DNA from: Candidatus Rifleibacteriota bacterium
GTDB taxonomy: Bacteria; Muiribacteriota; Ozemobacteria; Ozemobacterales; Ozemobacteraceae
Assembly: GCA_012520995.1 (NCBI GenBank)
Contig: JAAYNI010000046.1
Coordinates: 42,650 to 106,649 of the forward strand
Direction: 5' to 3'
Length of the DNA stretch: 64,000 nucleotides
Numbering within the stretch: position 1 is the stretch's first letter; each line of letters opens with the position of its first letter. The position numbers and the translations under genes were made by a program. Below, one piece after another: positions 1-55,433 of this stretch. A model generated the notes under the pieces. The model was not told the DNA's origin. It did no database searches and saw nothing but the letters and a program-made list of their open reading frames with translations.

Positions 1-1297
1 TGTAGAGGGTCTACTGGCTGAAAACATAAAAATTCTTGATTCTAATGCGAACGATCTGACAAGCCTAATAGAAGACGATGAAATCAAGCTGTTCAATGAA
101 ACTCAGGCACGTCACTTAAAAATTACCACTAACCGCGAAAAATCTCTTAAAGATCGCCTAACTAAAATTCTGCAAAGAGTCTTTGGCGTAGGCAATGTAG
201 AAGTTACTGTTTTTTTAGACATGGACTTCGACAAAAAAGAAGCTCTTAGAGATCTTGTAATTCCGCTTGAAGGAACAAACAGTGGTATAGTTCTTTCCGA
301 AAAGCTTGAGAATGAGGAATACAAAGGCAAAGATCTTGTAGAAGACGGCGAACCCGGAGTAAATTCGAACTTGCCTCCCGGCATGCCAGCCTATCCTTCC
401 ACAGATGAAGGCACCTACAATGAATACAAACGAGCAGGCACTACCAGAAACTATAAGATCAGCCAATCCAAAGAAAAATATATTAAAGAACAGGGCTCGA
501 TACGTCGAATGACCGCATCTGTTGTCATAAGCGGAGATCCTGAGCAGCTTAAAGCGATAGAAGACAAGATTACGGCAATAGCTCAAACAGCTATAGGTTT
601 TGACAAAGAAAGAGGCGACAAAATCACCGTAATGATCACGCCTTTTGAAAGCGAATCTGCCAAAAAAGCTCAGCGAGCTCTTGAATTAAAGAGGCTTCAG
701 GAGAAAAAAATGTTTAAAATATCCATAGCTGTCCTCCTCTCTATACCCATTCTGCTAGGATTAATTTATATTTTAAGCAGGCTTTCCAGAGCGAGGGCAA
801 TAGCCAAAGAGCAAAGACGTCTGCAAGACGCGGAACTCAGAGATGCAGAACTCAATCGTCTTAATGGGCAGCAAAACGAATACAGCCAAAGCCAACGGGA
901 ATTCGTTGATAGCGGATTTCAAAACATTCCCAACCTTTTTCCTGGAATAACCGACCCCGAAGAAAAGAACAACAAACTTCAGGAATTACGTATTCAAGCA
1001 TATCGATATGCTATGGCTAACGATGCTTTGCCCCCTAATTTCGAAAATATGACCCCCGAAGAGAAATATATTTTTAAAGAAGCTTTCACCAAGAAAGCAG
1101 AGGGCTCACTTGCTGCAGGGCTTGAAAATCTGGAAGCTATTTACGACAATCGCGAAAAGCTTAGAGAAGAAGAGCTTGCACGTCTGGACAGCGAAGCTCA
1201 TTCCCGTGAAGAACTTGAGCAACGCATTAGGGAATTAGTCTCCAGCAAACCTGAAGACGCTATAAAAGTTATGCGTCTCTGGCTTGCCAACAGTTAA
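1..1297 (+). CDS. fliF: Flagellar M-ring protein FliF, C-terminal part (5' end lies outside the window)
   Basis: The frame stays open from base 2 with no upstream stop, so the ORF continues leftward out of the window. It has the ...GVGNVEVTVFLDMDFD... block, a second TM helix (MFKISIAVLLSIPILLGLIYIL) and a charged C-terminal tail, as expected for the FliG-binding end of FliF. fliG follows directly. Confidence 0.8.
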   Translation, partial: VEGLLAENIKILDSNANDLTSLIEDDEIKLFNETQARHLKITTNREKSLKDRLTKILQRVFGVGNVEVTVFLDMDFDKKEALRDLVIPLEGTNSGIVLSEKLENEEYKGKDLVEDGEPGVNSNLPPGMPAYPSTDEGTYNEYKRAGTTRNYKISQSKEKYIKEQGSIRRMTASVVISGDPEQLKAIEDKITAIAQTAIGFDKERGDKITVMITPFESESAKKAQRALELKRLQEKKMFKISIAVLLSIPILLGLIYILSRLSRARAIAKEQRRLQDAELRDAELNRLNGQQNEYSQSQREFVDSGFQNIPNLFPGITDPEEKNNKLQELRIQAYRYAMANDALPPNFENMTPEEKYIFKEAFTKKAEGSLAAGLENLEAIYDNREKLREEELARLDSEAHSREELEQRIRELVSSKPEDAIKVMRLWLANS

Positions 1298-1314: not shown

Positions 1315-2361
1315 ATGGCTGAAGCAGCAGATAAAAAACAAGCAAAAACGAGCGAAGACGCTTCTGAGTTGTCAGGAAGAGCAAAAGCGGCTATTCTAAC
1401 TATTATACTAGATCCCGCCGCCTCAGGTTTGTTAATGCAGGGACTTACTGAAGAAGAGCTGGAAATTCTCACAGCTGAAATGCGAAATCATAAAAAAGTC
1501 TCTACCGAACAAAAAATAGATGTCTTTTTGGAATTCGAACAGCTCATGATGGGCAGAGAGTTTTATGCTGAAGGCGGCTTGGAATACGCCAAAAAGCTTT
1601 TGGAAAAAACATTAGGACCCAAAAAAGCGGCTGAGATAATAAACAAAATCCAAACTCCCAAAAAAATTCAACCTTTCGAAGCGGCGAGACAAGCTGATCC
1701 TCTGGTTGTAGCTTCACTGATACAAAACGAGCATCCTCAAACCATAGCCTTAATTCTTGCTTATCTGCAACCCGCCAACGCAGCCCTTATCCTCCAATCC
1801 ATGCCGCAAGAAACACAGGTAAGAATTGCCAAAAGACTCGCTTTGATGGAGAGAACCAGTCCTGAAATAATAAGTGAAGTAGAAAGGTATTTAAAAGATC
1901 GCCTCACTGCCTCAGCTCAAGAACACACAGACTCTCCAGGCGGGATAGATTCACTGATCAATATTCTGAATGCTGTTGAACGTCCTACTGAGAAAAATAT
2001 AATAGAAACGATGGAAGTTCAAGAGCCTGGCTTAGCAGAAGAAATCAAAAAGAGAATCTTTGTATTTGAAGACGTTATACTTATTGATGACAGAGGCATT
2101 CAAAACATCTTCAAACACATTGATCTTAAAGACTTGGCTTTGGCTCTTAAGGGTGTCAATGATGATGTTCAAGATAAATTCTTCAGAAATATGTCTGAGC
2201 GTGCACGCGAAATGCTAAAAGAAGACATGACATACATGGGTCCAGTCAGAATTGCAGACGTAGACAAAGCTCAGCAGCGAATTGTTGGCGTAATTAAAAA
2301 CCTTGACTCTAAAGGCGAAATAATTATTTCCAGACCAGGCGAGGAGGATTTCGTTGAGTAA
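1315..2361 (+). CDS. fliG: Flagellar motor switch protein FliG
   Basis: 348 aa. Contains EHPQTIALILAYLQPANAALILQSMPQETQVRIAKRLALMER and a C-terminal FEDVILIDDRGIQ...DLALALKG...MSERAREMLKEDM...GEIIISRPGEEDFVE block, the typical FliG middle and C-terminal domains. Confidence 0.9.
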   Translation: MAEAADKKQAKTSEDASELSGRAKAAILTIILDPAASGLLMQGLTEEELEILTAEMRNHKKVSTEQKIDVFLEFEQLMMGREFYAEGGLEYAKKLLEKTLGPKKAAEIINKIQTPKKIQPFEAARQADPLVVASLIQNEHPQTIALILAYLQPANAALILQSMPQETQVRIAKRLALMERTSPEIISEVERYLKDRLTASAQEHTDSPGGIDSLINILNAVERPTEKNIIETMEVQEPGLAEEIKKRIFVFEDVILIDDRGIQNIFKHIDLKDLALALKGVNDDVQDKFFRNMSERAREMLKEDMTYMGPVRIADVDKAQQRIVGVIKNLDSKGEIIISRPGEEDFVE

Positions 2362-2797
2362 TATTTATCCAAGCGAAGAAAGAATTTCAGGTTTGAAAAT
2401 TCTCGCATCAATCATGGAACATTGTGACGCAAGAACCAACAACAATATTATTTCAGGTCTTGCAACTGAACTGCCTCAAATAGCCTCAAAGTTAAAAAGC
2501 ATGCTCTTAAGCTTTGATGATTTGCGTTACGCAAATCCGCAAGGCATAAAACTTTTGTTAAAACAAATCAGCTTCAGAGATCTGGCAGCAGCTCTGCGCG
2601 GTTCCGATGAACGCCTTTTGCCAGTTCTTGCAAAGCATATGTCCAGAAATAACTTACAAGATTTAAGAGAAAAAATAACCTTATCGAACAACATTTCTTT
2701 GGCTGACGTGCAAGAAGCCAGAGAGAAAATTCTTTGCGAAATGTCAGCTTTGATAAAAGAAAACAGGATGTATATAGATAAAAAATGGGCAGAATAA
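2354..2797 (+). CDS. Small FliG C-terminal-domain-like protein (FliG/MgtE_N fold paralogue)
   Basis: TTG start at 2354 with a GAGGAGGA ribosome-binding site 5 nt upstream; overlaps the fliG stop by 8 nt. FDDLRYANPQGIKLLLKQISFRDLAAALRGSDERLLPVLAKHMSRNNLQDLREKI lines up with the FliG_C motif (F-D-L..D..IQ.LL...D.DLA.ALKG...MS.R...LRED). Confidence 0.6.
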   Translation: MSNIYPSEERISGLKILASIMEHCDARTNNNIISGLATELPQIASKLKSMLLSFDDLRYANPQGIKLLLKQISFRDLAAALRGSDERLLPVLAKHMSRNNLQDLREKITLSNNISLADVQEAREKILCEMSALIKENRMYIDKKWAE

Positions 2798-3912
2798 TCA
2801 AAGCTGGACAGCTGGAAATAAACCGAAACAAACCCTATAAAATAGAAAGCAAGCAAGCCTTTCCTGATCTAAAGCCTAAAAAGGCAACCTCAGGCTCAAG
2901 AGTATTTCAAGCTCTCTCACCCGAACTTTTGGCAGGTTTAGGAGAGCAAATAAAAACCTTTGAAACTCCCGAAGCCCCTCCTTCTCTAGAAGATGAAAAG
3001 CTTCATGAAACCATGCTTAATGAAGCTGAATCACTGAAAAAAACGAATGAAACCGCCTCCGAGGAAGATCTCCCTTCCGAGCAAGAAGCAAAAAAGCAAG
3101 AAACTTTATCACAAAATTATGAGCGTAAAAAACTAGAGCTTATAAAAAAAGAAGAAAACCTAAAACTACGAGAAGCCACTATTCAAAAACATGAGCGCGC
3201 ATATTACGAGCTTGAAAAAAAATTTCATGAAGAAACAGCCGAAATACGCAAAAACGCTGAAGCTGAAGCGGCAAACACGCTTAAAATAGCTAAAGAAGCT
3301 GCCGCTTCTATAATGGAATCCGCCAAAGCGGAAGCCGAAGCAATCAAAAAAACCATAAAAATCGAAGAAGAATCCGTAAAAGAAAAAGCCTATAAAGAAG
3401 GTTATTTTCTCGGTGAAGAAAAAGGAATTGAAGCAGGGGAAGAGCAAGGCAGACATGAAGCCGAACTGGATTTCAAAAGCTTGATGCAAGAGGCCGACAT
3501 GCTCATAAAGGAAATACAAAGTTCCAGGACCAGAATTCTAAAATCCGCAGAGGAAGATATGATAAAGCTGGTTTCCGCTTTTGCGAAAGCTGTATTGAAA
3601 ACCGAGCCGCAATTTGACAGGAAAATAGTTTTGAACAACTTGGATGCCGCCTTGGCAAAACTCTCACAAACAGAGAAGTTGACAGTCAGAATAAATATCA
3701 AAGACAAGGCAATGTGCAAAGATCATAAAGATAAGTTCATGACAAAACTCACAGGCAAGCCCGAACTTGAAATAGTAGAAGATCCTGGTTTATTGCCAGG
3801 CGGCATAAGGCTTGAAACTTCATCGGGCGCTATAGACGCGACAATAGAAACACAGACCGCAAAACTGGAAGAAGCTCTCTTTGAAGCTTACAGACTAAGC
3901 ATGGAACAATGA
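2785..3912 (+). CDS. fliH: Flagellar assembly protein FliH with a long K/E-rich N-terminus
   Basis: Sits between fliG and fliI. The C-terminal region (...LPGGIRLETSSGAIDATIETQTAKLEEALFEAYR) matches the FliH/ATP-synthase-b-like stalk. The first ~200 aa are low-complexity and charged. Confidence 0.7.
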   Translation: MGRIIKAGQLEINRNKPYKIESKQAFPDLKPKKATSGSRVFQALSPELLAGLGEQIKTFETPEAPPSLEDEKLHETMLNEAESLKKTNETASEEDLPSEQEAKKQETLSQNYERKKLELIKKEENLKLREATIQKHERAYYELEKKFHEETAEIRKNAEAEAANTLKIAKEAAASIMESAKAEAEAIKKTIKIEEESVKEKAYKEGYFLGEEKGIEAGEEQGRHEAELDFKSLMQEADMLIKEIQSSRTRILKSAEEDMIKLVSAFAKAVLKTEPQFDRKIVLNNLDAALAKLSQTEKLTVRINIKDKAMCKDHKDKFMTKLTGKPELEIVEDPGLLPGGIRLETSSGAIDATIETQTAKLEEALFEAYRLSMEQ

Positions 3913-3913: not shown

Positions 3914-5221
3914 GTGAAAATCAACTTCGAAGCTTATCAAGAAACTATACTAAAAACAGAGCCTGTCTCCGCAAGCGGGCGAGTAACTCAAGTTGTAGGT
4001 CTTTTAATAGAGGCTACAGGCCCGCAAAATCCCGTAGGCGACCTTTGCAACATTATAACTGAAGAAGGTGCTCTTCCATGCGAAATAGTCGGCTTCAGGA
4101 GAGGCTCTATTCTTTTGATGCCCCTCAAGCACACAGAAGGCATCAGACAGGGAAATGAAGTAGTTCCGGTAGGCACTCCGCTCACAGTGCCAGCTGGTCA
4201 CGAGCTTCTTGGACGTTTGCTCGACGGACTTGGCGAACCATTGGACGATCTCGGTTCATTGCCCTCAGGAATAACAAGAGTTCCAATAAACAGAGAACCT
4301 CCCAACCCATTTTCCAGAAAACGTATAAAAAATGTTCTTTCTACAGGAGTTCGAGTTCTAGACGGTCTTTTGACTATGGGCAACGGTCAGAGGATAGGCA
4401 TTTTTGCTGGTTCCGGAGTAGGCAAAAGCACATTAATGGGCATGATCAGCCGCTCCTCTTCTGCAGACGTAAACGTCATAGGACTTATAGGGGAAAGAGG
4501 CAGAGAAGTCAGAGAGTTTATAGAAAAAGACTTGGGAAAAGAAGGCCTTGCCCGTTCAGTTATAGTAGCAGCCACATCCGATCAGCCTGCTCTGGTAAGA
4601 ATCAAAGCAGCTTTTACGGCAACTGCCATAGCTGAGTATTTCAGAGATCAAGGCAAAAACGTTCTTTTGCTTATGGACTCAGTCACCAGATTTGCTCTGG
4701 CACAAAGAGAGGTCGGACTTGCAACTGGTGAACCCCCATCCACCAGAGGCTATACACCTTCCGTATTTGCCATGCTTCCAAAGCTCCTTGAAAGAGCCGG
4801 CACCTCCCAAAGAGGCACAATAACAGCAATTTACACAGTACTTGTTGAAGGCGGAGATATGGATGAGCCTGTAGCTGACGCTGTCAGAGGTATCTTAGAC
4901 GGGCACCTTGTTTTGAGCAGAACTTTAGCCCAACAAAACATATATCCTGCAGTAGATATTTTAGCAAGCATTTCAAGACTTATGCCTGATATAGCGGAAA
5001 AAGAACATTATAATCTGGCAAACAAAACCAGAAACTATTATGCTACCTATATGAAAAATGCCGACGTTATCAGCCTTGGAGCCTATAAATCTGGTTCGGA
5101 TCCACGTATAGACGAAGCTATAAAAAAACATCCGCTTATAGAAGACTATATCAAGCAGGGGATAAATGAAACCATCACTTTTGATGAAGCTGTCAAAGCT
5201 CTTCAAAAAATAGTATCGTAG
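3914..5221 (+). CDS. fliI: Flagellum-specific ATPase FliI
   Basis: GTG start directly after the fliH stop. Walker A GSGVGKST and Walker B LLLMDSVTRFA are present, with the F1-ATPase beta-like fold typical of type III export ATPases. Confidence 0.92.
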   Translation: MKINFEAYQETILKTEPVSASGRVTQVVGLLIEATGPQNPVGDLCNIITEEGALPCEIVGFRRGSILLMPLKHTEGIRQGNEVVPVGTPLTVPAGHELLGRLLDGLGEPLDDLGSLPSGITRVPINREPPNPFSRKRIKNVLSTGVRVLDGLLTMGNGQRIGIFAGSGVGKSTLMGMISRSSSADVNVIGLIGERGREVREFIEKDLGKEGLARSVIVAATSDQPALVRIKAAFTATAIAEYFRDQGKNVLLLMDSVTRFALAQREVGLATGEPPSTRGYTPSVFAMLPKLLERAGTSQRGTITAIYTVLVEGGDMDEPVADAVRGILDGHLVLSRTLAQQNIYPAVDILASISRLMPDIAEKEHYNLANKTRNYYATYMKNADVISLGAYKSGSDPRIDEAIKKHPLIEDYIKQGINETITFDEAVKALQKIVS

Positions 5222-5231: not shown

Positions 5232-5687
5232 ATGGCCTTTGTTTTCAAATTGCAAAAGCTCTTGGAGTTAGCCGAACATGAAGAAGAGCAAGTAAAGTTA
5301 GAGCTGGCGGCAAAGGATGCGGAAATAAAAGCCTTGGAAAAAAAAGATCGCGAAGCAGAACAAAAATACAATGCCACAATTGACAGCAGATACGAACATT
5401 TAAAGAATGGCGACATAATTCAGTTAAATATGTGCACAGCATACCTTGATATTATTACTAAAATTAGGTTACAATATAAAGAGGACTTGGCCGATCTCCA
5501 AGCGCAAAGACAGGAGATTGTCCAACGTCTCACAGAAAAGAGAAAAACAACCAAGACCTACGAAAAGATAAAAGAGAATGAAGAAGACAAATATAAAAAA
5601 CACATGCTCAAAATTGAGCAAAAGCAGTTGGACGAATTTGGAAGCAGGTTACGGACATCAGATCCGGAAGGAGAATACAATGCTTGA
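5232..5687 (+). CDS. fliJ: Flagellar export chaperone FliJ
   Basis: 151-aa coiled-coil protein immediately after fliI with a TAGGAG ribosome-binding site. The N-terminus FKLQKLLELAEHEEEQVKLELA is FliJ-like. Confidence 0.65.
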   Translation: MAFVFKLQKLLELAEHEEEQVKLELAAKDAEIKALEKKDREAEQKYNATIDSRYEHLKNGDIIQLNMCTAYLDIITKIRLQYKEDLADLQAQRQEIVQRLTEKRKTTKTYEKIKENEEDKYKKHMLKIEQKQLDEFGSRLRTSDPEGEYNA

Positions 5688-6051
5688 CAACATACAAAAT
5701 GTCACAAACCGCATCGACGTCATCAAAACAAATCTATCAAATCGTCTTCCTGTTATGAATCGTATGGTCTCTTCTGACTTCTCTCAAGAAAATAAAAATT
5801 CAAAAACTATATTTGATAATCAACTTTTAGGTGCAATTGAAATGGGCAGCAAACATATCCGCAACCTAAGGGCAGCTCTTAATAACTTGGTAGCTGAAAC
5901 TTGCATAAAAACAGGTCTTGAGCCTGATGAAGTAAGACAGCTTATTCATCAATTCACAGCAATAGACAAAGCTGATCCATTTTTAATCAATCTAAAGAAA
6001 AGTGCCCCTCGCCAGTTGCGCAATGCTATAAAGCTGGTAAAAATAGAATAG
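5680..6051 (+). CDS. Hypothetical flagellar-operon protein (123 aa)
   Basis: Start moved from the ORF-track position to the ATG at 5680, which has a GGAAGGAGAA ribosome-binding site 6-8 nt upstream. It overlaps the fliJ 3' end by 8 nt. I recognise no family. Confidence 0.4.
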   Translation: MLDNIQNVTNRIDVIKTNLSNRLPVMNRMVSSDFSQENKNSKTIFDNQLLGAIEMGSKHIRNLRAALNNLVAETCIKTGLEPDEVRQLIHQFTAIDKADPFLINLKKSAPRQLRNAIKLVKIE

Positions 6052-6064: not shown

Positions 6065-6982
6065 ATGCCCAATCCGGAAGATCTTCTGCCGACTCCGGAA
6101 ACAATCAATGGGGAATCTGGAGCCCCTGCCACTCTAAAAACGAGGATTGCCAAACCTGTGAGTCCTCCTGAAAAACCCTCAATGTTTTTCTCACTCATAA
6201 AAAAAATGGCTTTCCTTGTTTTGCTTTTTGTTTTTATACTTTCTATCCTACTATCCTTGCTGACTTTGGATTTCTTGGATATTTTAGTCTTCAGACACAG
6301 CATTCCTGAAAAGTATGCAGAAAAGCCACTTATAAAAAAATATTTAGACTTTGTCAAACTCCACCAACTCCCGGAAGAAGAAAAATATTACCAACTAATA
6401 TATGAGCAAAGAATGAAATATAATCAGCTCATAACTGAAGGCAGCAGAGATCTCAAAAAAAGAGCCGATCTTCTGGAAAGCTCTTACAGAGATTTGATTA
6501 GAGTTCAAAAAAACAAATATTCCAATGAAATGGAAAATTTACGAAAAGCCAGAGAAGAAGCCGAGCTTGAAAAAAGCAAAACTGCCGCTTTGCAAGCTGA
6601 ACTGGACACGCAAAAAGCCAAACTAGAAAGCGCCAAAGCAGCTCTGGCATCAGAAGCCATCAAAATAGAAGCTGCTCTGATTAAATTCATGGAAAAAGAC
6701 AACCGCTTGGATCAAATTTGCAGCATAGCTGCTCAAATGGAGCCGTTGCCATTGGCCAAAATTTTTGACGAGATCTCAGACGATCAGCTTATATATGACA
6801 TATTAGGCGGTTTGGAGCCAGCTCACTCAGCTAAAGTTTTAGCAGGCATGGATAGAGAAAAAGCTGGCAAAATAATGAGAATAGGCGCAATACCTCAAAC
6901 TGTGCCAGGATATGAAGGAGTTGCTCAAGGACAGCTTCCACAAGAACTGCGACAAGCTCTTCAAAATGCGAAAGACATCTAG
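6065..6982 (+). CDS. Membrane-anchored coiled-coil flagellar protein with MgtE_N-like C-terminal domain (YlxF-like)
   Basis: One TM helix (FLVLLFVFILSILLSLL), a long coiled coil, and a C-terminus (QMEPLPLAKIFDEISDDQLIYDILGGLEPAHSAKVLAGMDREKAGKIM) resembling the MgtE N-terminal/FliG-like fold. Its position after fliJ mirrors ylxF in Bacillus-type fla operons. Confidence 0.55.
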   Translation: MPNPEDLLPTPETINGESGAPATLKTRIAKPVSPPEKPSMFFSLIKKMAFLVLLFVFILSILLSLLTLDFLDILVFRHSIPEKYAEKPLIKKYLDFVKLHQLPEEEKYYQLIYEQRMKYNQLITEGSRDLKKRADLLESSYRDLIRVQKNKYSNEMENLRKAREEAELEKSKTAALQAELDTQKAKLESAKAALASEAIKIEAALIKFMEKDNRLDQICSIAAQMEPLPLAKIFDEISDDQLIYDILGGLEPAHSAKVLAGMDREKAGKIMRIGAIPQTVPGYEGVAQGQLPQELRQALQNAKDI

Positions 6983-13112: not shown

Positions 13113-14399
13113 ATGACTTTTGAAACAGAATATGCTGCCGGTAAGCAGGCTCATAAAGAGAAAAACTTCAAAAAAGCTAAGGAGCATCTGGAAAAAGCCT
13201 TAGCAATAAAGCCTAACGATGTTTACGCAATGAACAAACTGGCAGTGGTTCTCAGAGAAATGGGGGATTTAAAAGGAGCCGAAGATATCTTAGGCTATTC
13301 TTTGCAAGTTAAAAATGATGACCTTTACTCCAATTATCTTCTCGGAAATACTCTTATAGAAAAGGGCGATTTTAAGAGTGCTATAAAAAACCTTAAGCAC
13401 ACTTTAAAACTCAAACCCAACGACAAGTACACCCTAAACTCCTTGGCTTTGGCAAACAAAATGATGGGCGACTATGATGAATGTATCGTCATTCTAAAAA
13501 AAATCTTAGAAATAGACCCTGACGATCTCTATAACAAGGTCAGCCTTGCCACCACCTACATGGAAATGGGCGAGTTTGATTTGGCTCGTGACCTTCTTGA
13601 GGAAATACTGAAAAAAGATGAAACAAACGTTGACGCTAACGTTCTTGAAGGCAGGCTTTTTCTTGAAAACAAAGACTACCAGAGAGCCCAAAACAGTTTC
13701 AACAAAGCACTGAACACTAATCCCGAACATAGCGCTGCACATTATTATTTAGGCAGAGTATGCCTCGAAATAAACTACTCCGATGAAGCCAGATTGCATT
13801 TCAACGAAGCTTTGCGTTTTACAAGAAATCAAATTCCAATACTGCTGAATTTAGGCATTATTTTCACTAGTAAGCGCATGTACGATGATGCAGAAGAAAA
13901 CCTTTCAATGGCTTTGGATTTGGAAAGTGAAAATGCCGATGCTCTTACTAATATGGGAAAACTCCTTATACTGCAAGGCAAGCCCAATGAAGCAATATTG
14001 CACCTGAATAAGGCATTAGGACTTGATCCTAACTCTGCCTTCGCATATTACAACTTGGCAAAAGCCTATCAAGCTTTGAACAAGCCGGATAACGTTATAA
14101 AGAACCTCTATCTAGCCCTTAAATACGAACCGGAAGACTTCTATGCCGCTAACGAACTTGGCAAGCTTTTACTGGAACGAAAAGAATATGAAGAAGCCAT
14201 AAAAGTTTTCGATACTGGCGCAAAGGGAGCCTACCCTGACAAATATTCTCTTTTAGGCAAGGCTCAAGCTTTAAAAGCCTTAGGCAAAAACAGAGCAGCA
14301 CTCAAAATTGTAAAACAAATTGAAAAAGATTTTGATAACTTCACTGATTCTTTCACTGACGAACTCACTTATATGAAAACTATTCTCAAGGGTTCCTAA
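13113..14399 (+). CDS. TPR-repeat protein
   Basis: About 11 tandem 34-aa TPR-like units (A/Y/L periodicity); AAGGAGA ribosome-binding site. Confidence 0.7.
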   Translation: MTFETEYAAGKQAHKEKNFKKAKEHLEKALAIKPNDVYAMNKLAVVLREMGDLKGAEDILGYSLQVKNDDLYSNYLLGNTLIEKGDFKSAIKNLKHTLKLKPNDKYTLNSLALANKMMGDYDECIVILKKILEIDPDDLYNKVSLATTYMEMGEFDLARDLLEEILKKDETNVDANVLEGRLFLENKDYQRAQNSFNKALNTNPEHSAAHYYLGRVCLEINYSDEARLHFNEALRFTRNQIPILLNLGIIFTSKRMYDDAEENLSMALDLESENADALTNMGKLLILQGKPNEAILHLNKALGLDPNSAFAYYNLAKAYQALNKPDNVIKNLYLALKYEPEDFYAANELGKLLLERKEYEEAIKVFDTGAKGAYPDKYSLLGKAQALKALGKNRAALKIVKQIEKDFDNFTDSFTDELTYMKTILKGS

Positions 14400-19349: not shown

Positions 19350-19754
19350 ATGAGCCGTTTGCGTCTTCTTTTGCTATCCGAGAAAGAAAAAGTCTCAGGA
19401 CTGATTCCCTCATATGGGGTTTTGCCAGTTCTATACGCCGTTTCCACTGACCCTTCAGACTTAACAAACTTTTGGAACAATGTAAAAATAGCAGATAAGT
19501 CTTTAGAGAAGCTTTTTACTGCCGCAATAGACCCTTCCCCTACAATGAAACCTAACTCAGAAGGCCTGCTCGTAGTAAACTTTGCAGAAAAAATTATTTC
19601 ATCATTTCAAAGATATCTGCCTATAAGAAGAGCTGGCACCTTGTCTCATCACAACGGCTTATTTTCAGAGCAGGAACTCCCAGACTCACAGCCCCTTTTC
19701 TACAAGCTGCCAACCTCATGGCAAATAAAAAATTATCCCTTTGGAAAAAAGTAG
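19350..19754 (+). CDS. Hypothetical protein
   Basis: ORF co-directional with and abutting its neighbours. No recognisable motif. Confidence 0.35.
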   Translation: MSRLRLLLLSEKEKVSGLIPSYGVLPVLYAVSTDPSDLTNFWNNVKIADKSLEKLFTAAIDPSPTMKPNSEGLLVVNFAEKIISSFQRYLPIRRAGTLSHHNGLFSEQELPDSQPLFYKLPTSWQIKNYPFGKK

Positions 19755-19758
19755 ACCG

Positions 19759-22065
19759 ATGCAATGTCCAGACTGTAAAACTGTTAATCCCGACTCAGCC
19801 CTTTTTTGGTCTTTGTGCGGCAAATCTCTTAAGAGACCTTGCCCTGGTTGCGGTGTTCTTAATAAAATCACCGCAAACTTTTGCTCCAATTGTTTCCAAA
19901 GTTTTTTAGAACAGCCTACTTATCGACCCTACCAACCTCAAGAGCACAGCAAACAGAAGCTGCCAAAACGCCCTTTCTTTATGATATTGATAGGCACTGT
20001 CTCGTTTATGCTAGTAAACTTCACTAGTCTCTTCAGAGGAAATAACGCTATTTTTGCTTCAGCACTGCTTATAACTGCTGGAATAGCTCTGTGGGGCATA
20101 GGCGAATTAGTATTCCATCTTCTCTCTCAGGATCCCTACACCTCTGAACAGTTAAAAATCGCAAAAGATTTTCCCGCAGTCTATATTGAAGAGCTCTCTC
20201 AATCCTATCCCTCTTTTTCAGCCGCAGAAAAGGAACTTGAAGAAACTCAAACAGCAGTTCCCCACACTTCTCCGATCGCAACTTTAGATCATCTCCCTGA
20301 AACTTCCAGTCTCCTGACAGCACAGATAGAAGAAACTGTTAATCGTCTTGAATCAGAAACAAACACACAAGACACTCAATCTTCTTATTCTACAGTTGCA
20401 GAATTTCTGACTAAAAGTCTTGACTCAGAAATAGTAGAACTTCAAGAAAAATTTGATAAATCTCCCTCAAATACAACCATTGCAATGGATCTTGCTCGTC
20501 TATATGAAGAAAAAGGCGATCTAAGATCTGCTGAAAAAACCTTGAGGAACTTGGCAAAACGCAAGACACATAAAGCCGATCTCCCTCTTTACTATGCAAC
20601 TCTTTTACATAGACTTGGAAAAATTGAAGATGCAAAAAAATCCCTTGAAAAAGCTGAAAGCATAAACCCCTCAATGAGCAAAATCTTCTACAGAAAAGGC
20701 TTGTTAGCAGCTTCTGAAAAAAACTATGCCGAAGCGAAAACAGCTTTCCAACGCTGTATACAGCTTGCACCAGATGATCCTTACGCTCATTACCACTTAG
20801 GAATGATTTACAGAGCTTCCGGCGATCATGACCTTGCCATGCAAGCTATAAAACGAGCTACAATACTGCATCCTGATGACTCTTATGGGCACAGCAAGCT
20901 CGGTATCCTATGTCGTGAATCAGGAAACTACGCCGAAGCTCTCAAGGCCTTTTCTAAAGCTTTAAGCCTTAAGCCTGATGACATTTTTCTTTATAAACAG
21001 CTTGCCGAGATAACCTCTTTAAGCGGAGAATACGAAAAATCTTCGGAGCTTTACAAAGAAATTATAGTGAGAGAAAGCCCGCCGAAATCAGAAACCCTCA
21101 TAGATTTTTGCAAAGTTCTGCGAAAACTAAACGCATATGGAGATATAGAAGAAATTATAAATGAGGTTTTAACAGCTGAGCCAGAAAACAAAGAAGCTCT
21201 ACTCATAAAAGCTATAGCCTGTACTCGTTTAGAAAAATACAACGAAGCCAAGCCGATTTTTAAATACTTAGTAGCAGATCCTGATGTCTCTTATGAAGCT
21301 TGGTTAGAATTAGGAAAAATTTACCAAATAGAAAATCAATCTGAGAAAGCCTTGGTAGCTCTTGTAAAGGCTGCATCCACAGCTCCAGATCAAGCTGGCA
21401 TATGGAACCGTATCGGCATTCTGCTCTCAAAACAACAAGCTTATAAAGAAGCTCTTGCAGCCTTCAGAAAGGCCGCAAGCTTTGATTATACCGACAAAAA
21501 TATAAGCGGAAATCTAGCCGCTTTAACAGAAAAAGTAGAAGAAGACCTCAACCGAATAATAGAGCAATCCGCCCAAAGCATTTCTAGAAATCCTGATGAC
21601 GCTATATCCTACATGCAGATGGGCAATGCCTATGAAGACCTGAACCGCTTGGAAGAAGCTATGCTGGCATACCAAAAATGTATTTCCCTGCAGCCTGATA
21701 ATATAAACGCGCTCTCGCGTTATGCTGACATTCTCAGAAAAAGAGGCAATCTGCCACTTGCAATACGTTGCTGTAAAGAAATATTAAAAAGCAATCCTAA
21801 CCACATGGAAACTCATCTATTTTTAATTCAAGCATATCTAAACCGAGGCTTTGTGGATAAAGCTTTGAGATATGCAACTCAAGCAAAACAAATAGAAGAA
21901 AAAGATCCTAAGCTCCACTTCCTACTTGGCAAGATTTACTTTGCAAAAGGTCTGTTTAAGCGAGCCTTGGATGAATTCACAATTGTTTCTCAACTCCCTG
22001 TCGAGCCCGACATGATAGCATGGGCTGAACTCATGCGCAGACGACTCTTAAAAGCAAAAACGTGA
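19759..22065 (+). CDS. Double zinc-ribbon / transmembrane / TPR-repeat protein
   Basis: N-terminal CPDC...CPGC...CSNC zinc-ribbon pair, two TM helices, then more than 12 TPR-like repeats. The ATG at 19759 is preferred over the upstream TTG at 19741. Confidence 0.6.
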   Translation: MQCPDCKTVNPDSALFWSLCGKSLKRPCPGCGVLNKITANFCSNCFQSFLEQPTYRPYQPQEHSKQKLPKRPFFMILIGTVSFMLVNFTSLFRGNNAIFASALLITAGIALWGIGELVFHLLSQDPYTSEQLKIAKDFPAVYIEELSQSYPSFSAAEKELEETQTAVPHTSPIATLDHLPETSSLLTAQIEETVNRLESETNTQDTQSSYSTVAEFLTKSLDSEIVELQEKFDKSPSNTTIAMDLARLYEEKGDLRSAEKTLRNLAKRKTHKADLPLYYATLLHRLGKIEDAKKSLEKAESINPSMSKIFYRKGLLAASEKNYAEAKTAFQRCIQLAPDDPYAHYHLGMIYRASGDHDLAMQAIKRATILHPDDSYGHSKLGILCRESGNYAEALKAFSKALSLKPDDIFLYKQLAEITSLSGEYEKSSELYKEIIVRESPPKSETLIDFCKVLRKLNAYGDIEEIINEVLTAEPENKEALLIKAIACTRLEKYNEAKPIFKYLVADPDVSYEAWLELGKIYQIENQSEKALVALVKAASTAPDQAGIWNRIGILLSKQQAYKEALAAFRKAASFDYTDKNISGNLAALTEKVEEDLNRIIEQSAQSISRNPDDAISYMQMGNAYEDLNRLEEAMLAYQKCISLQPDNINALSRYADILRKRGNLPLAIRCCKEILKSNPNHMETHLFLIQAYLNRGFVDKALRYATQAKQIEEKDPKLHFLLGKIYFAKGLFKRALDEFTIVSQLPVEPDMIAWAELMRRRLLKAKT

Positions 22066-23210
22066 AACTTCTCGCAAGCTCTTTATTAATACTCTTACTT
22101 TTCTCTCACACTCCTGCAGCCATGGCAGCTTCAGGCTATTCACCCTTGAGAGATTACAACACAGCGGGAGATATTTTACTTCACTCTGAAAAACAGTCCA
22201 AATCTGACTCATATTACCTGCTGGCTCTCCAAGAGATCAAGAAAAACAACCCTCTCAGAGCTTTTAACTCAATTAATGCCGGGCTTAGAGAAAATAAATA
22301 TGATATAAGACTTTTGCGTCTGCGAGGATTTCTTTTTGCAAGGAGCGGCAAACTCAAAGAAGCTTATGCGGATTTTTCTCGAATTTTGCTTCTCTCTCCG
22401 GAAGATGAATACTCCACCTTAGCCCTTAGAGAAGTAAAAACGGCCATTGATAATGCCCAAAGCTCCATTGAACTTCTTTACACCCCGCCAGAAGAACAAA
22501 AAAATAGAAGTGCGAAAGACAAAGCTCCAAAAGTTGACGAAACTTCGGAAAAAACACCTGAAAAAATCCTAACTTCCTCATATTTCGACAATATGCGAGA
22601 TAAGCAACAATGTCTCCATAACATGGACACACTTCAAAGAGCTTACGAAAACTATAAAAAAACAAATTCAAACAAACCTTTCTCCATAAAAGATATGATG
22701 CTTTCATTAGCTCTTAAATTTGAGCCCTTATGTCCTAACAGAGGAAACTATACTTGGACTAATAATCAAATAGAATGTTCCGTGCATGGTAAAGAAAAAC
22801 CCTTAAGAGGTGAAGTAACAAAAATATTCGGCGACTTTAACAATGCTTTGCAGCAAAAACAAAGAAAAAATTACTTAGAAGCTGAAAAACTCTTCAAACA
22901 AGCTCTAATCTTTTATCCAAAATGGCCTGAACTCTATTATCAGCTTGGAGATACCTATTTTAAGATGGGGAGACTTCAAGAGGCCATAACCCATCTTGAG
23001 AAAGCTCTTTCCATGGCTCCTGACAATCTAGACATACAAATGCTTCTGGCTCATGCTCATTTTAAGCAAGGTAGCCGTGCTGCAGCTCTCGCCCATCTTG
23101 ACAAAATAATTAAAGAAAACAAAAGTGTTATTCACAGCATGTCAGCCAAAAGTATCGCAAGAAAAATTCGTGAAGGAAAATCTTATGAAGCCGTCTTCCC
23201 AACCTACTAA
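22062..23210 (+). CDS. Secreted TPR-repeat protein
   Basis: GTG start overlapping the upstream stop, signal peptide MKLLASSLLILLLFSHTPAAMA, TPR-like repeats. Confidence 0.6.
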   Translation: MKLLASSLLILLLFSHTPAAMAASGYSPLRDYNTAGDILLHSEKQSKSDSYYLLALQEIKKNNPLRAFNSINAGLRENKYDIRLLRLRGFLFARSGKLKEAYADFSRILLLSPEDEYSTLALREVKTAIDNAQSSIELLYTPPEEQKNRSAKDKAPKVDETSEKTPEKILTSSYFDNMRDKQQCLHNMDTLQRAYENYKKTNSNKPFSIKDMMLSLALKFEPLCPNRGNYTWTNNQIECSVHGKEKPLRGEVTKIFGDFNNALQQKQRKNYLEAEKLFKQALIFYPKWPELYYQLGDTYFKMGRLQEAITHLEKALSMAPDNLDIQMLLAHAHFKQGSRAAALAHLDKIIKENKSVIHSMSAKSIARKIREGKSYEAVFPTY

Positions 23211-24924: not shown

Positions 24925-26649
24925 TCAATTTTGCAACAACACAAATTTGTAAGAGTGGGAAACGGTAAAGTCGAATTTATCTGAACGAGCTAAGCTGGAA
25001 AGTTCAAAAGCGTTTTGTTCCGCTTCAAGGTCAACACTGAAAATTATCTGGGTTGAAAGCATATTTTTGTGATAAGCCAAGTGCATAGTCGAATAAAGAG
25101 TAGGATCTATAGAAACCCAACCTCTGTTGTTCTCATAAACTTCCAGCCATTGATGGCCTACCGTGTCATCGGTGCCCAGCATCTCCTCTTTGATTAAGTA
25201 GCCGTTTACAAGCCTTGCGGGCATACCCTTTTTTAAAGCCAGAGCCAAGAAAAGTAAAGCATATTCTGTACAGTCACATTTTCCCGGATTATCAAATATC
25301 CAATCTAGACCGTATCTGGTTCTATTTTCATAGTAAGAGAGCCCTTGATTTACAACCCTGTTTGCATTGATTAAGAAATCGCCTTCAAGGCTGTTTACAT
25401 ATCTATAAAGCATTTCAAGACGTCTGTTTGTCAAATCCACACCGCTTTTCCGGATAATCTCGTTTATGTCAGGAACAGGTGCTTGTTGAGGTTTAAAGAA
25501 AGGTTTTACGCTGATTTTTCTGAGAACTTCTATAGAAAGCTTGGTTCCCCAAGCTGAACGCGGAATATCGACATAAAGGCTTCCGTCCTCTCTGGCTATA
25601 GGTTTCAAAATTGTTTTGCGGTTTCTGGAAATTACCGCAACTTCCATCAACGAGATGCTTTGTCTCTCAGACTCGTTTATTTGAGGCAAAGAACAAGTCA
25701 GCTTCTCCAACTCCGAAGCCATATTTAAAGAAGCATTTAAGGTAGACGTAAATAGATATGTCTTAGGTGTGAGGCTATTAATTATAAGTTCTGTAGACTT
25801 GGCATTGTCACTTTCCGGAAATTTTCTTAGCGCTTTCTGTGCTATCTCTAGCAAACCTTCATGCTTTCCAAGAGAAAATCTGGCTCTGACATAGGCATGA
25901 GCAAGAAAAGGGTCATTTTCTCTAGTCGGGGAAGTTTTTAAAAAAGCCTCAGCCTCATAAAATTTGTTTTTCTCAAAAAGAGCCGAGACAAGAAAAACTG
26001 CCGTCTGAGTATCTTGTGGCATTTTTCTCATATGCCCAAATGCCTGCTCTATGAGAGTTTTTCTGTATTTGCCTGTAGCATAAAGCGAAGCAACAAGGCT
26101 TTGAGTTATTTGTGTGTTATTAGGTTCAAACTTTGCCGCATAATGCAAATATTCCGCTGCACGCTTATAGTTATTAAAACTGTTAAAATAAATTGTAGCT
26201 GCCAACAAAGCCGCCTTGATATTGCGCGGATTAATTGCCAAAAGCCTGAGAGCTATCTCGTCCAAACGCTTTTCAAAGGCGATGTCTTTTACATTTTGAG
26301 TCATTTGGGCCTTCTGAGCCATAACCATCAGATAGTTATTCAAAATTTTTGCATCAAAAGGGTTATAAGCCAAAGCTTCATCAAAAAGCTCAATTGCACT
26401 GTCGAAGTCTTTCGACAGCGACTTGTTTATAGCCTCGTCATTCAAAGTGGCCGCATAGTATTTATTGTCATAGGAAACCTCTTCAAAACCTTCCTGAACT
26501 TCTAAAAAGTTCAAGCCGGAAGATTCAAAAACATCATCACGTGTTGTTTCAGGAGGCAATAAAAAGCTCTTTATATACGAAGTCTCTGCTGACAGCAGTG
26601 AGCAAAATATGAGACCAAGAGCCGTTAGAATGACAATTTTTACTCTCAT
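24925..26649 (-). CDS. Secreted TPR protein with C-terminal transglutaminase-like cysteine-protease core
   Basis: Signal peptide; TPR-like helical repeats; C-terminal GKCDCTEYALLFLALALKKGMPARLVNGY...GHQWLEVY resembles the transglutaminase-like Cys-His-Asp core. Confidence 0.6.
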   Translation of the reverse strand: MRVKIVILTALGLIFCSLLSAETSYIKSFLLPPETTRDDVFESSGLNFLEVQEGFEEVSYDNKYYAATLNDEAINKSLSKDFDSAIELFDEALAYNPFDAKILNNYLMVMAQKAQMTQNVKDIAFEKRLDEIALRLLAINPRNIKAALLAATIYFNSFNNYKRAAEYLHYAAKFEPNNTQITQSLVASLYATGKYRKTLIEQAFGHMRKMPQDTQTAVFLVSALFEKNKFYEAEAFLKTSPTRENDPFLAHAYVRARFSLGKHEGLLEIAQKALRKFPESDNAKSTELIINSLTPKTYLFTSTLNASLNMASELEKLTCSLPQINESERQSISLMEVAVISRNRKTILKPIAREDGSLYVDIPRSAWGTKLSIEVLRKISVKPFFKPQQAPVPDINEIIRKSGVDLTNRRLEMLYRYVNSLEGDFLINANRVVNQGLSYYENRTRYGLDWIFDNPGKCDCTEYALLFLALALKKGMPARLVNGYLIKEEMLGTDDTVGHQWLEVYENNRGWVSIDPTLYSTMHLAYHKNMLSTQIIFSVDLEAEQNAFELSSLARSDKFDFTVSHSYKFVLLQN

Positions 26650-29158: not shown

Positions 29159-29812
29159 ATGGATAAAAAAAGCCTAATTATAACAGGATTTGTAACAGCT
29201 TTTCTTACACTTCTCTTTTTAATTGGGCTTTTTATCATAGTTCCTGGTCTAGACCAACCTTCGAAAGAAGAAATAGAACATATAGAATCAGTTCTTCAAA
29301 GATACGATGGCATCGCAAAGGCTTTCATAGAAGAAAATCCTAACAGCAGAGAAGCAATCGAATTAAAAGCAACAATTAAAACCTATGAAAGATACGAAAA
29401 GCTCATAAAAGAAGCTGGAATACCTTTGCAGTCGTTGCCTTCAAATTCAAATACTGTCTCTGCAAATACAAATAAAACTTTGTTCGATGAGCCTTTTATC
29501 CCTAGCTCTTCCCATCCCGACTATCTGAAAGCTTTATCTCTCTTCAAGGAACAGAAATATGCGGGAGCCTTGGAGCTCTTCAGCCAAATAATGAAAGAAG
29601 CTCCTGACAGCAAAGAAGCTCTCTATTCTGAATATGCAATAGCTTACATATATTTTCGCACCAAAGACTTCAAAACAGCTCAAAAACTCTTCAAAACCTT
29701 GGCTGAAAAAGATCCATACGGCCACGTAGGTCAAAGCTCTTCGAATGCGGTCAAATATTTGGCAAATCTCGACAAACACGAAGACAACCTGCATTTTCCT
29801 ATAGAAAGATAA
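29159..29812 (+). CDS. Membrane-anchored TPR-like protein (hypothetical)
   Basis: N-terminal TM helix and C-terminal TPR-like helices (ALSLFKEQKYAGALELFSQI...). Confidence 0.45.
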   Translation: MDKKSLIITGFVTAFLTLLFLIGLFIIVPGLDQPSKEEIEHIESVLQRYDGIAKAFIEENPNSREAIELKATIKTYERYEKLIKEAGIPLQSLPSNSNTVSANTNKTLFDEPFIPSSSHPDYLKALSLFKEQKYAGALELFSQIMKEAPDSKEALYSEYAIAYIYFRTKDFKTAQKLFKTLAEKDPYGHVGQSSSNAVKYLANLDKHEDNLHFPIER

Positions 29813-29840
29813 TAAAAGGCGAAATTAAGGAGACTAAACT

Positions 29841-30311
29841 GTGAAGAGACAAGTAAACGCTTTTACACTCCTTGAAGTAATGATAGCCGCCTTCATTTTG
29901 GCAGCAACGCTCATCCCCGTTCTTTCTGTCTTTTCTGCAAGCAACAAGCAAACTGAAAGAAGCGCAATAACTTTAGAAGTAGCCGTAACCGCACAAGACT
30001 TGCTGGATGAAATTCGTCGTTCTAATATTTTGCGAAGTTCCTCTTTACCGATGAAAATAGAACTTCCTTCTGATATGTATCCGCAATTCCCAATATCAGA
30101 AAGAATTGCAAAGAAATATCAAGGCAAAGTTGTGATAACAATTTCAAATCCTGCAGGGCATACAGATCTGAGAGGAAAAAAAGAAGAGGACCTAATAGAG
30201 ATCATGGTTAAAGTAGACTGGACAGAAGGAGAAATGACGCCTTCATACACAGCAAGAGCCTATGTGACCCTGCTGGGTCAGCATTTAATAACCACAACGA
30301 GCGTGCCATAA
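29841..30311 (+). CDS. Prepilin-type pseudopilin/minor pilin
   Basis: GTG start with an AAGGAGA ribosome-binding site. N-terminus MKRQVNAFTLLEVMIAAFILAATLIP has the class III signal FTLLEV. Confidence 0.65.
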   Translation: MKRQVNAFTLLEVMIAAFILAATLIPVLSVFSASNKQTERSAITLEVAVTAQDLLDEIRRSNILRSSSLPMKIELPSDMYPQFPISERIAKKYQGKVVITISNPAGHTDLRGKKEEDLIEIMVKVDWTEGEMTPSYTARAYVTLLGQHLITTTSVP

Positions 30312-30949
30312 TGAAATCAACCCGCATTAAATCAGTAAGTTCCAAACAGTCGGCTTACACTCTTATGGAAGCTTTAATTGCAGTAGCCATCGCTTCCATA
30401 ATAAGCCTTACGATATTTGCCGCACTGCGAACCAGTCTTGCGAATGTCGCTTTAGGACAAAAAAAACTTAGAACAACTGAAAAGATACAGGCTATAACTA
30501 AATCGATTTTTTTCGATCTGAAGCGCACAGGCCTCTTAGCTCACGGATTTAACATTTCAGGAGAGACAAGAGGCAAATTCACTCCTCATAATGTCCTATT
30601 GCTCAAGTTCCCCGAAGAACCCTCAGACAATCTCCAAATGATTAACACATCCCCAGGACAAGGCAAAGGCACAACGACAGTCTACCTTCTCATAGACGAA
30701 CCGAATTCTCAATTGTCTTCATTGGTACGTATAAGCAAATCCGGTCCCATTATTCGCAGAATTACCAAGGTTGCAAACGCAATTAAAGACTTCAGGGTCC
30801 ATGCTGATCCTTACAACAAAAACAAAGTAAGAATCACCATGACAGTTTATGATAGCCTAGAACCAACTAGAAGCGAAAAATTAGATTTCAGCGTTCATCT
30901 GGATTCCGACCTTGTGCGTGCAAAACAGTATATTCTCGTAAAAGGATAA
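30311..30949 (+). CDS. Prepilin-type minor pilin-like protein
   Basis: N-terminus ...SAYTLMEALIAVAIASIISLTIFAAL, with a pilin-like hydrophobic helix after a T-L-M-E-A motif. Start codon abuts the upstream stop. Confidence 0.55.
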   Translation: MKSTRIKSVSSKQSAYTLMEALIAVAIASIISLTIFAALRTSLANVALGQKKLRTTEKIQAITKSIFFDLKRTGLLAHGFNISGETRGKFTPHNVLLLKFPEEPSDNLQMINTSPGQGKGTTTVYLLIDEPNSQLSSLVRISKSGPIIRRITKVANAIKDFRVHADPYNKNKVRITMTVYDSLEPTRSEKLDFSVHLDSDLVRAKQYILVKG

Positions 30950-30951
30950 AC

Positions 30952-31479
30952 ATGCAATATTTCAACAAAAACAAAGGCTATATAATGTTTACAGTGATAA
31001 TGTGCATAGTTTGTCTTGCAATATTTGCAGCCGGTTACTTTTATTATTCTGGAAGCATAAACACCAGAGTCTTTTCTGAAGCCCATAAAATCAAGGCTGT
31101 CAATTACGCCAAAGCAGGTTTGGAGAAAGCAAAGCTTGACATATACAACAGCTACTCCATGGGAATATATGATGTCTCCACAGAAAGCGGCAAGCTGATC
31201 AAGAATCGGGCTGGCTCAAACGAATACAAATTCGAGTTTCCTGACGGCGGATACGAAATAATATCTATTAAGGCACAAACTATGATGGTTCCCGAAAAGC
31301 CTGGCAGCTCCAAAATGGTGGAAGCTCCCGTAGCAGATATTGAGCGCACCTCAAAAGGAGAACCATCTGGCACATACGATATATGGATTATAGAAACTCG
31401 AGGTTATACTAAAAGGCCTTCTGCAAAAATAAAGCTGAGAACTTTATTGAAAATTTACAGGGATAAAAACTTTTTTTAA
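30952..31479 (+). CDS. Small membrane-anchored protein in the pilin operon (PilX-like position)
   Basis: Single N-terminal TM (MFTVIMCIVCLAIFAAGYFYY); co-directional and tightly packed with the pilins. Confidence 0.4.
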   Translation: MQYFNKNKGYIMFTVIMCIVCLAIFAAGYFYYSGSINTRVFSEAHKIKAVNYAKAGLEKAKLDIYNSYSMGIYDVSTESGKLIKNRAGSNEYKFEFPDGGYEIISIKAQTMMVPEKPGSSKMVEAPVADIERTSKGEPSGTYDIWIIETRGYTKRPSAKIKLRTLLKIYRDKNFF

Positions 31480-31505
31480 TTAAAAATATCAGGAGATATC
31501 TCACA

Positions 31506-49889: not shown

Positions 49890-49890
49890 T

Positions 49891-52886: not shown

Positions 52887-52892
52887 AAGCCT

Positions 52893-53261: not shown

Positions 53262-53373
53262 TGATAGATACTCGAAAAATATATCCTGTTTAATATTATT
53301 GCTCCTTAGTGTGATCCCTAAGAAATTGTACTATAACAAAAAGAAAAATTGAAGATTAATTATTTCTATATTC

Positions 53374-53402
53374 TTGACAGAGATAAGGCAGTGTGCTAAT
53401 TT
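53374..53402 (+). promoter_or_regulatory. Candidate promoter (-35 TTGACA, TG-extended -10 TGCTAATTT)
   Basis: TTGACA at 53374-53379, 17-nt spacer, TAATTT at 53397-53402 preceded by TG. It lies 95 nt upstream of the ATG at 53497. Confidence 0.4.
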
Positions 53403-53496
53403 TGTTATGTTATTAAGCCCGGAAAAGCTGACGGGTATATTATCTTTTAAACAGCCTCTAAATACTTAGGAGGACTTGAAAGGAGACTTGTTTTAC

Positions 53497-54270: not shown

Positions 54271-54282
54271 TTTGTCGACCTC

Positions 54283-55422: not shown

Positions 55423-55433
55423 CCCTGAATAAA

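Follow-up and report, generated by a model that had tools for sequence, protein, structure and literature searches.

A small gene lies between fliG and fliH in the flagellar operon of a Candidatus Rifleibacteriota bacterium (assembly GCA_012520995.1, contig JAAYNI010000046.1, positions 42,650 to 106,649; this stretch of 64,000 nucleotides (nt) is called the window below, and coordinates refer to it). FliG stands at the centre of torque generation and switching in the flagellar motor, and the inserted gene, here termed the mini-FliG_C gene or mini gene, encodes a stand-alone counterpart of its C-terminal third. The mini gene is a real, conserved and functional flagellar accessory gene, the precise role of which we infer. 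We put the probability at roughly 45% that its product is a FliG_C mimic that arose by duplication within fliG, docks through its ARM_C sub-domain on FliG/FliM, and modulates rotor assembly or switching.

The gene begins inside the end of fliG, and the following features, all on the forward strand, define it.

2354..2797 (+): mini-FliG_C gene, 147 amino acids (aa), TTG start; Pfam FliG_C E = 1.6 × 10⁻¹⁷, AlphaFold2 mean predicted local distance difference test score (pLDDT) 84.1.
1315..2361 (+): fliG, complete canonical rotor protein of 348 aa with FliG_N, FliG_M and FliG_C; 368 bits against TIGR00207 (cut-off 226.7).
2341..2348 (+): Shine-Dalgarno sequence GAGGAGGA of the mini gene, lying inside the fliG codons for E-E-D, as read from the sequence.
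2354..2361 (+): 8-nt overlap TTGAGTAA, a translational-coupling junction in the sequence, holding the TTG of the mini gene and the TAA of fliG (2359–2361).
2387..2503 (+): ARM_C sub-domain, residues 12–50, from alignment to Thermotoga maritima and Escherichia coli FliG.
2504..2515 (+): hinge LLSF, the aligned counterpart of MFXF (E. coli MFLF, 233–236).
2645..2692 (+): torque-helix equivalent RNNLQDLREKITLSNN, residues 98–113, with a degenerate charge pattern, from alignment.

The open reading frame (ORF), its TTG start and the ribosome-binding site GAGGAGGA are present just as a preliminary description of this locus had reported, with a spacing of 5 nt between GAGGAGGA and the TTG, and all four motifs listed there (FDDL, IKLLLKQ, RDLAAALRG and MSRNNLQDLREKI) are found in the translation. 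The same description held that the preceding fliG has an intact C-terminal domain of its own, and this proved right: the window FliG spans TIGR00207 positions 4–337 of 338. Because this upstream FliG is complete with its three domains, the mini ORF is not a piece split from a broken fliG. At the other end, the ATG of fliH (2785) overlaps the 3′ end of the mini gene by 13 nt.

We then compared the mini protein with profile and structure databases. Against Pfam FliG_C (PF01706), it scored 64.2 bits (cut-off 23.3) over residues 36–139, a match that takes in profile positions 3–106 of 108. The preliminary description had suggested a FliG_C/MgtE_N-type fold; the FliG_C half of that assignment stood, and the MgtE_N half did not, as MgtE_N (PF03448) gave no match to the mini protein at E ≤ 1, whereas the adjacent full-length FliG scored 33.5 bits against MgtE_N in its M region. 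FliG_N and FliG_M likewise had no match in the mini protein at E ≤ 1. Against the FliG equivalog TIGR00207, the protein reached 52.3 bits, well under the cut-off of 226.7, and covered model positions 197–324 only. Its identity to its own FliG is 26% (FliG residues 209–344), and its closest solved relatives by sequence are middle/C-terminal fragments of T. maritima FliG, aligned from mini residue 9 onward. Alignment to E. coli FliG places the start of the mini protein at the Gly-Gly linker (G194–G195) and resolves it into ARM_C, a counterpart of the MFXF hinge (LLSF) and a six-helix torque domain. The claim of a stand-alone FliG_C is thus borne out, with the addition that the protein comprises ARM_C and the hinge counterpart as well as the torque domain. 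ARM_C helix 1 (SGLKILASIM) is the counterpart of the hydrophobic-patch helix that adjoins FliG's Gly-Gly linker.

AlphaFold2, supplied with 31 family sequences, gave a model with ten helices and a predicted template modelling score (pTM) of 0.69 along with the pLDDT given above. A Foldseek comparison covering the PDB returned 15 matches at E ≤ 0.001, and all 15 are FliG structures. The torque domain of the model superposed on 1qc7 with a root-mean-square deviation (rmsd) of 1.4 Å. As one rigid body, the entire model fitted FliG of Salmonella in the clockwise state (8wiw_3, TMq 0.76, 2.3 Å; 8umx_B, TMq 0.74, 2.5 Å), and Helicobacter pylori 3usw was also among the best rigid-body matches; counter-clockwise FliG structures deviated by about 8.6 Å. 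The predicted orientation of ARM_C relative to the torque domain may therefore be clockwise-like, although we take this as a weak hint from a model. Profile comparison and predicted fold, two of the three checks suggested beforehand, agree that the mini protein is a member of the FliG_C domain family. With no N and M domains and a TIGR00207 score below the cut-off, it is not a FliG.

To delimit the family, we searched protein and genome collections. An identical protein, with the annotation 'hypothetical', is present in a Candidatus Riflebacteria metagenome-assembled genome (MAG). The 15 contigs that encode it come from several biogas and other metagenomes, and the gene order around it is invariably flgB-flgC-fliE-fliF-fliG-mini-fliH-fliI-fliJ; this flgB-to-fliJ order was seen in six genome contexts, five of them besides the locus of the identical protein. 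A word-seeded search with the single mini protein returned the identical sequence only, and the family emerged with an exhaustive HMMER search and a profile. The HMMER search of 1.84 billion representative proteins yielded 1619 matches at E ≤ 10⁻³, the best full-length ones being proteins of 146–155 aa that ranked above every full-length FliG. A family profile recovered about 32 proteins of 146–156 aa at 156–216 bits, with the next match at 113 bits; the window protein scored 193 bits. We define the mini-FliG_C family as proteins of 146–156 aa that contain FliG_C only and score at least 156 bits against the family profile. Its named members all come from Riflebacteria or Ozemobacter.

Next, GTDB species representatives were scanned with FliG as the anchor, and the 80 returned loci were analyzed. 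The mini gene lies directly 3′ of fliG in 33 of 33 loci that have a Riflebacteria-type FliG (at least 61% identity) and complete downstream DNA. Two incomplete contigs (L030 and L036) carry its 5′ part, and five more Riflebacteria-type contigs end within or just past fliG and so carry no information on the mini gene. The contig of Wallbacteria locus L046 breaks off at the stop codon of fliG. Among 40 non-Riflebacteria loci (Firmicutes, Spirochaetota, Chloroflexi and others), none has a second FliG_C-like ORF on either strand. FliH was recognised in 29 of these 40, where the position of the fliH start ranges from 59 nt ahead of the fliG stop to 185 nt past it and no mini gene intervenes; in E. 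coli, too, fliH follows fliG immediately. The suspicion that this arrangement is foreign to canonical operons was therefore well placed, since it is absent from E. coli and these 29 loci and conserved across Riflebacteria. In the literature on FliG_C/PF01706, FliG paralogues, Riflebacteria flagella and Ozemobacter, we came across no account of a gene that lies between fliG and fliH and encodes FliG_C alone; in the Vibrio MotV/MotW paper, PF01706 serves solely for gathering FliG sequences. The arrangement is apparently undescribed so far.

Four of the loci with a mini gene and a Riflebacteria-type fliG (L020, L022, L039 and L090; 63–65% FliG identity to the window) belong to MAGs labelled Candidatus Methylomirabilis, Erysipelotrichia and, twice, Candidatus Avigastranaerophilus. 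These are probably mislabelled bins or contaminating contigs and not a broader distribution. One candidate from another lineage, a 150-aa FliG_C-only protein (P0191; L012, 6661–7453), was rejected as a mini gene: it is part of a frameshifted fliG on a long-read contig with 2x coverage, and a 126-aa FliG_M ORF overlaps it upstream. The case calls for caution when stand-alone FliG_C proteins are counted in metagenome catalogues.

For comparative analysis, we assembled a 34-genome set from the window, 31 GTDB loci and two further loci. The mini ORF, of 146–156 aa, is intact in all 34 genomes, each readable in full, and the combination of TTG start, GAGGAGGA and 8-nt overlap with fliG is kept in 33 of the 34 loci, the window included. 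The sole exception is L041 (3999–4473), where the mini gene starts with ATG after a 24-nt spacer and without GAGGAGGA, while fliH starts with TTG; the mini protein of this locus also has the lowest family-profile score (158 bits). Pairwise distances between mini proteins track those between the cognate FliG proteins (Spearman 0.73), a sign of vertical inheritance. Mini proteins have a mean pairwise identity of 0.48, compared with 0.85 for FliG_C within their cognate FliG proteins, from which it follows that the mini protein changes about 3.5 times faster than FliG_C. Even so, the gene is under purifying selection: the ratio of nonsynonymous to synonymous substitution rates (dN/dS) is 0.009–0.07 in close pairs, and its median over 57 usable pairs is 0.35 for the mini gene versus 0.13 for fliG, with the distant pairs affected by saturation.

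This faster change is unevenly spread along the protein. In a segment-wise comparison of constraint across 27 dereplicated genomes, ARM_C helix 1 (conservation 0.72 in the mini protein vs 0.82 in FliG) is among the best-kept segments of the family, and torque-domain helices alpha-1 and alpha-2 are also well conserved (0.70 and 0.75). The largest loss of constraint falls on the torque helix (0.60 vs 0.96 in FliG) and ARM_C helix 2 (0.49 vs 0.96). At the hinge, the last Phe is present in all 34 mini proteins, and the position of the first Phe is occupied by L, F, M, I or V.

The charges through which FliG contacts MotA are, in E. coli numbering, K264, R281, D288, D289 and R297, and we verified these five positions on the E. 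coli FliG sequence. All five charges are complete in each of the 34 cognate FliG proteins (K, R, E, D and R in the window FliG). Their state in the mini proteins is as follows.

K264 position: charge kept in 28 of 34 (K/R); R in the window protein.
R281 position: R in 21 of 34, Asn in 11; N in the window protein.
D288 position: charge kept in 18 of 34; E in the window protein.
D289 position: E/D in 33 of 34; K in the window protein.
R297 position: charge kept in 19 of 34; S in the window protein.

The window protein thus retains two of the five stator-contact charges and reverses one (K107, at the D289 position), and it is alone among the 34 in carrying Lys there. Other members, such as that of Ozemobacter sibiricus (P0164), retain all five.

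Many mini proteins (e.g. P0011, P0005 and P0164) carry, ahead of ARM_C, D-P-W or S/N-P-F followed by G-R-K/R-G, a short conserved motif; the window protein (MSNIYPSEERISG) is without this aromatic motif. The motif could be a docking peptide. We considered whether it was inherited from FliH, whose N-termini in Riflebacteria and Firmicutes read MA(K/R)I(F/Y)KA or MS(K/R)(V/I)IKA, and rejected this, as the likeness is limited to the first two residues and is forced by the overlap.

We next turned to the origin of the gene. In 17 Firmicutes-type loci (within L047–L083), it is fliH that has the TTG start and the 8-nt overlap with fliG; fliG and fliH of E. coli (L013, 3869–3876) likewise share 8 nt. 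This junction looks like a widely conserved translational-coupling signal that is now used by the mini gene. In Riflebacteria, fliH is displaced downstream of the mini gene and starts with ATG in all loci but L041. Many mini proteins also retain the I-x-RPG motif of the FliG C-terminus a few residues from the stop, and this motif, together with a TTG/8-nt junction that belongs to fliH elsewhere, fits a duplication that included the 3′ end of fliG. The simplest history would be a tandem duplication of the last third of the gene: in a Riflebacteria ancestor, the 3′ third of fliG, 3′ end included, may have been partially duplicated in tandem, and the duplicate may have captured the ancestral TTG/8-nt junction that coupled the next gene (fliH in related operons) to fliG. 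Mean identity of the mini proteins is 31.7% to the FliG_C of Riflebacteria and 28.4% to that of other phyla. In a neighbour-joining bootstrap tree, monophyly of the mini proteins received 46%, a grouping of mini proteins with other stand-alone FliG_C proteins 59%, and a grouping with Riflebacteria FliG 0%. The 59% grouping is probably long-branch attraction.

How might such a protein act? FliG rings assemble through intermolecular ARM_M–ARM_C stacking in a domain swap, and the ARM-C hydrophobic patch adjoins the GG linker (PMC7355467). We propose that the mini gene is an expressed accessory flagellar gene whose product would mimic FliG_C. The conserved ARM_C helix 1, with its hydrophobic patch, would dock on the ARM_M of a FliG seated on FliM_M, that is, on the surface normally taken by the ARM_C of the neighbour. 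Because it has no ARM_M, the mini protein is unable to extend the domain-swap chain, which argues for capping or modulation; the mimic would cap or modulate FliG polymerisation and the switch and would not be a main torque generator. The function common to the whole family would rely on the ARM_C docking surface, whereas MotA contact is probably retained in lineages with all five charges and reduced in that of the window. What we infer in this proposal is the origin by duplication, the partner on which the protein docks and the effect on function. The preliminary description had offered an extra stator-interface subunit or a regulatory one. The stator option is weakened in the window protein by its two remaining charges, the Lys at the D289 position and the relaxed torque helix, and a regulatory or accessory part appears the best reading.

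Several points weigh against the capping or modulating mimic. To our knowledge, each ARM_M in the solved closed C-rings (2024 Salmonella structures) is already filled by a neighbouring ARM_C, so a stable docking site is not obvious, and in solution the mimic would have to compete with the intramolecular ARM_C of FliG itself. The Glu (or Asp) at the D289 position in 33 of 34 mini proteins and the kept K264 equivalent in 28 point to some remaining stator-facing function, which a pure cap would not need. In the neighbour-joining tree, moreover, monophyly of the mini proteins has no more than 46% bootstrap support, and they do not group with Riflebacteria FliG_C.

The stator-facing residues are also what gives substance to an unlikely alternative, a soluble stator-binding factor in which a free FliG_C would bind the cytoplasmic face of MotA via the torque helix and serve as a brake, a decoy or a chaperone for unengaged stators. 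Many mini proteins do retain the requisite charges at D289, K264 and R281, and P0164 holds all five. Yet the torque helix ranks among the segments whose constraint has fallen furthest below that in FliG, Asn occupies the R281 position in about a third of the family, and the window protein keeps only two charges and reverses a third; an inhibitor constitutively coupled in translation to fliG, within a core structural operon, would also be unusual. Slightly less likely still is a stoichiometric extra rotor subunit that would bring a second set of FliG_C torque modules into the C-ring and add or specialise stator contacts. Its fixed slot in a core operon, its translational coupling to both neighbouring genes in the window and its presence in every sampled Riflebacteria genome speak for such a part, and there is a precedent in the C-ring and the sorting platform, where C-terminal domains have stand-alone paralogues. 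Against it, no free docking site is known for such a subunit, the stator ridge is variable, the protein evolves about 3.5 times faster than FliG_C, and elsewhere the TTG junction drives fliH, a lower-copy component, which may tie this junction to low copy number. In its boldest form, FliG would be encoded by two genes, with the free FliG_C modules making up a stoichiometric and permanent second rotor layer as FliN does to FliM. This seems improbable to us; if true, stator-contact sites would be doubled or a distinct stator type served, in a C-ring unlike that of every motor solved.

Two further explanations fare far worse than these. A functionless, decaying remnant of a partial fliG duplication, or an artefact of gene calling, would account for the low mean pairwise identity and for the degenerate charge ridge of the window copy, but the ORF is intact throughout the set, its start, ribosome-binding site and overlap are kept in all but one genome, dN/dS is low in close pairs, and the predicted fold is confident; the true artefact P0191, moreover, was recognisable as such. 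We strongly disfavour this explanation. It is likewise very improbable that fliG ends in a programmed +1 frameshift, which would fuse the mini protein to FliG and give a rotor protein with two C-terminal modules. The frames do share 8 nt in 33 of the 34 genomes, but the ordinary fliG/fliH pair uses the same overlap elsewhere, a strong ribosome-binding site stands at the correct spacing before a start codon, and L041 has a 24-nt spacer and an ATG of its own; inspection by eye, made without a formal scan, revealed no slippery motif.

The remaining flagellar genes of the window flank the fliG–mini pair, all on the forward strand.

2..1297 (+): fliF, 3′ part, its 5′ end lying beyond the window start; Pfam YscJ_FliF_C E = 9.9 × 10⁻²⁵.
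2785..3912 (+): fliH, 375 aa, ATG start; Pfam FliH E = 1.1 × 10⁻²³, with NCBIfam FliH models below cut-off.
3914..5221 (+): fliI, flagellar export ATPase; Pfam ATP-synt_ab and T3SS_ATPase_C (same gene in locus L001).
5232..5687 (+): fliJ; Pfam FliJ E = 2.3 × 10⁻¹¹, TIGR02473 65 bits (cut-off 50).

The complete FliF, read from locus L001 on the same contig, has 631 aa. Further flagellar genes, motA and fliM for instance, are absent from the remainder of the window.

Two ORFs past fliJ deserve mention. The first, immediately after fliJ (5680–6051, +, start as called in L001), encodes 123 aa that match no Pfam or NCBIfam model. The same slot in five other Riflebacteria genomes holds a protein of 211–251 aa with an SLT (lytic transglycosylase) domain, which indicates that the window lineage has a different or very diverged gene there. 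The second, two genes past fliJ (6065–6982, +), encodes 305 aa, with a hydrophobic segment at the N-terminus followed by a middle region that is long and charged. It matched the spirochete flagellar collar protein FlbB (NF047368) at E = 1.4 × 10⁻⁴ and 21.7 bits, below the cut-off of 110, and had no Pfam match and no PDB sequence match; its product may be a divergent basal-body protein of the FlbB/YlxF type.

Farther downstream, two clusters on the forward strand (29159–34200 and 49431–58365) contain pseudopilin-like proteins, with an N-terminal methylation motif at 30311–30949 and 49891–50640. They are flanked by tetratricopeptide repeat (TPR) and FG-GAP proteins and by large ORFs (749, 873, 345 and 264 aa) without a Pfam match, and may represent systems like those of type IV pili or type II secretion, some components of which lack annotation. 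TPR-repeat proteins are unusually dense at 13113–14399, 19741–23210 and 24925–26649; one of them, of 774 aa, has a double zinc ribbon at its N-terminus, and another combines TPR with a transglutaminase core.

Finally, we compared the mini protein with known systems. Its nearest structural counterpart is the FliG C-terminal domain (T. maritima 1lkv and 1qc7; Salmonella C-ring 8umx and 8wiw), which has the same fold at 26–29% identity, with an rmsd to the model of 1.3–1.4 Å for the torque domain and 2.3–2.5 Å for the entire module. Unlike FliG, the mini protein has neither FliG_N, which binds FliF, nor FliG_M, which carries the EHPQR motif and binds FliM, and therefore cannot bind FliF or FliM in the manner of FliG; its charges are only partly kept. 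With the ARM_C-plus-torque half made as a separate polypeptide tied to fliG translation, the uncultured Riflebacteria offer a natural probe of the domain-swap model and of rotor–stator contact. Should the product cap or remodel the FliG chain, it would represent a new type of modulator, acting on assembly or the switch; should it form part of the ring, the architecture of the motor would itself be new.

Other stand-alone FliG_C-only proteins of about 145–160 aa (P0044 from Bacteriovoracaceae; P0099 and P0075 from metagenomes) share the architecture and approximate length of the mini protein, and none is characterised. Their genes, however, lie away from flagellar operons, beside epimerase, kinase, DnaJ or AMP-binding genes, and they reach at most 113 bits against the mini-family profile, where the family itself scores 156–216 bits; the tree groups them with the mini proteins at 59%, probably through long-branch attraction. 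Cases in which a C-terminal domain also exists as a separate copy and assembles with the full-length protein are familiar from FliN beside FliM_C or FliY and from the internally translated SctQ-C beside SctQ. The mini gene would share with these a logic in which a separately translated C-terminal domain is encoded beside or within its parent gene. We regard this as an analogy only; the FliN/SctQ-C fold is SpoA, and that of the mini protein is armadillo-like helical.

Among paralogues of FliG, the Leptospira LIC10244 family (NF047717) shows weak likeness over the FliG_C region (E = 1.1 × 10⁻⁴), and with 21.7 bits against a cut-off of 475 the mini protein is not a member. Transcriptome work (PMC13066512) lists LIC10244 as a 'fliG paralog'; it is a protein of 252 aa whose C-terminal part is FliG_C-like, an architecture unlike that of the mini protein. 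Borrelia burgdorferi offers a second FliG-derived protein within one flagellar system, FliG1 plus FliG2 (cited in PMC11607428). FliG1 and FliG2 are full-length, three-domain proteins encoded at separate loci, whereas the mini protein is the C-terminal third alone, encoded between fliG and fliH. The mini gene joins the accessory basal-body proteins recently recognised in less-studied phyla, such as FlgV (PMC11607428), and its history would illustrate a route of gene birth in which a partial tandem duplication captures an existing translational-coupling signal.

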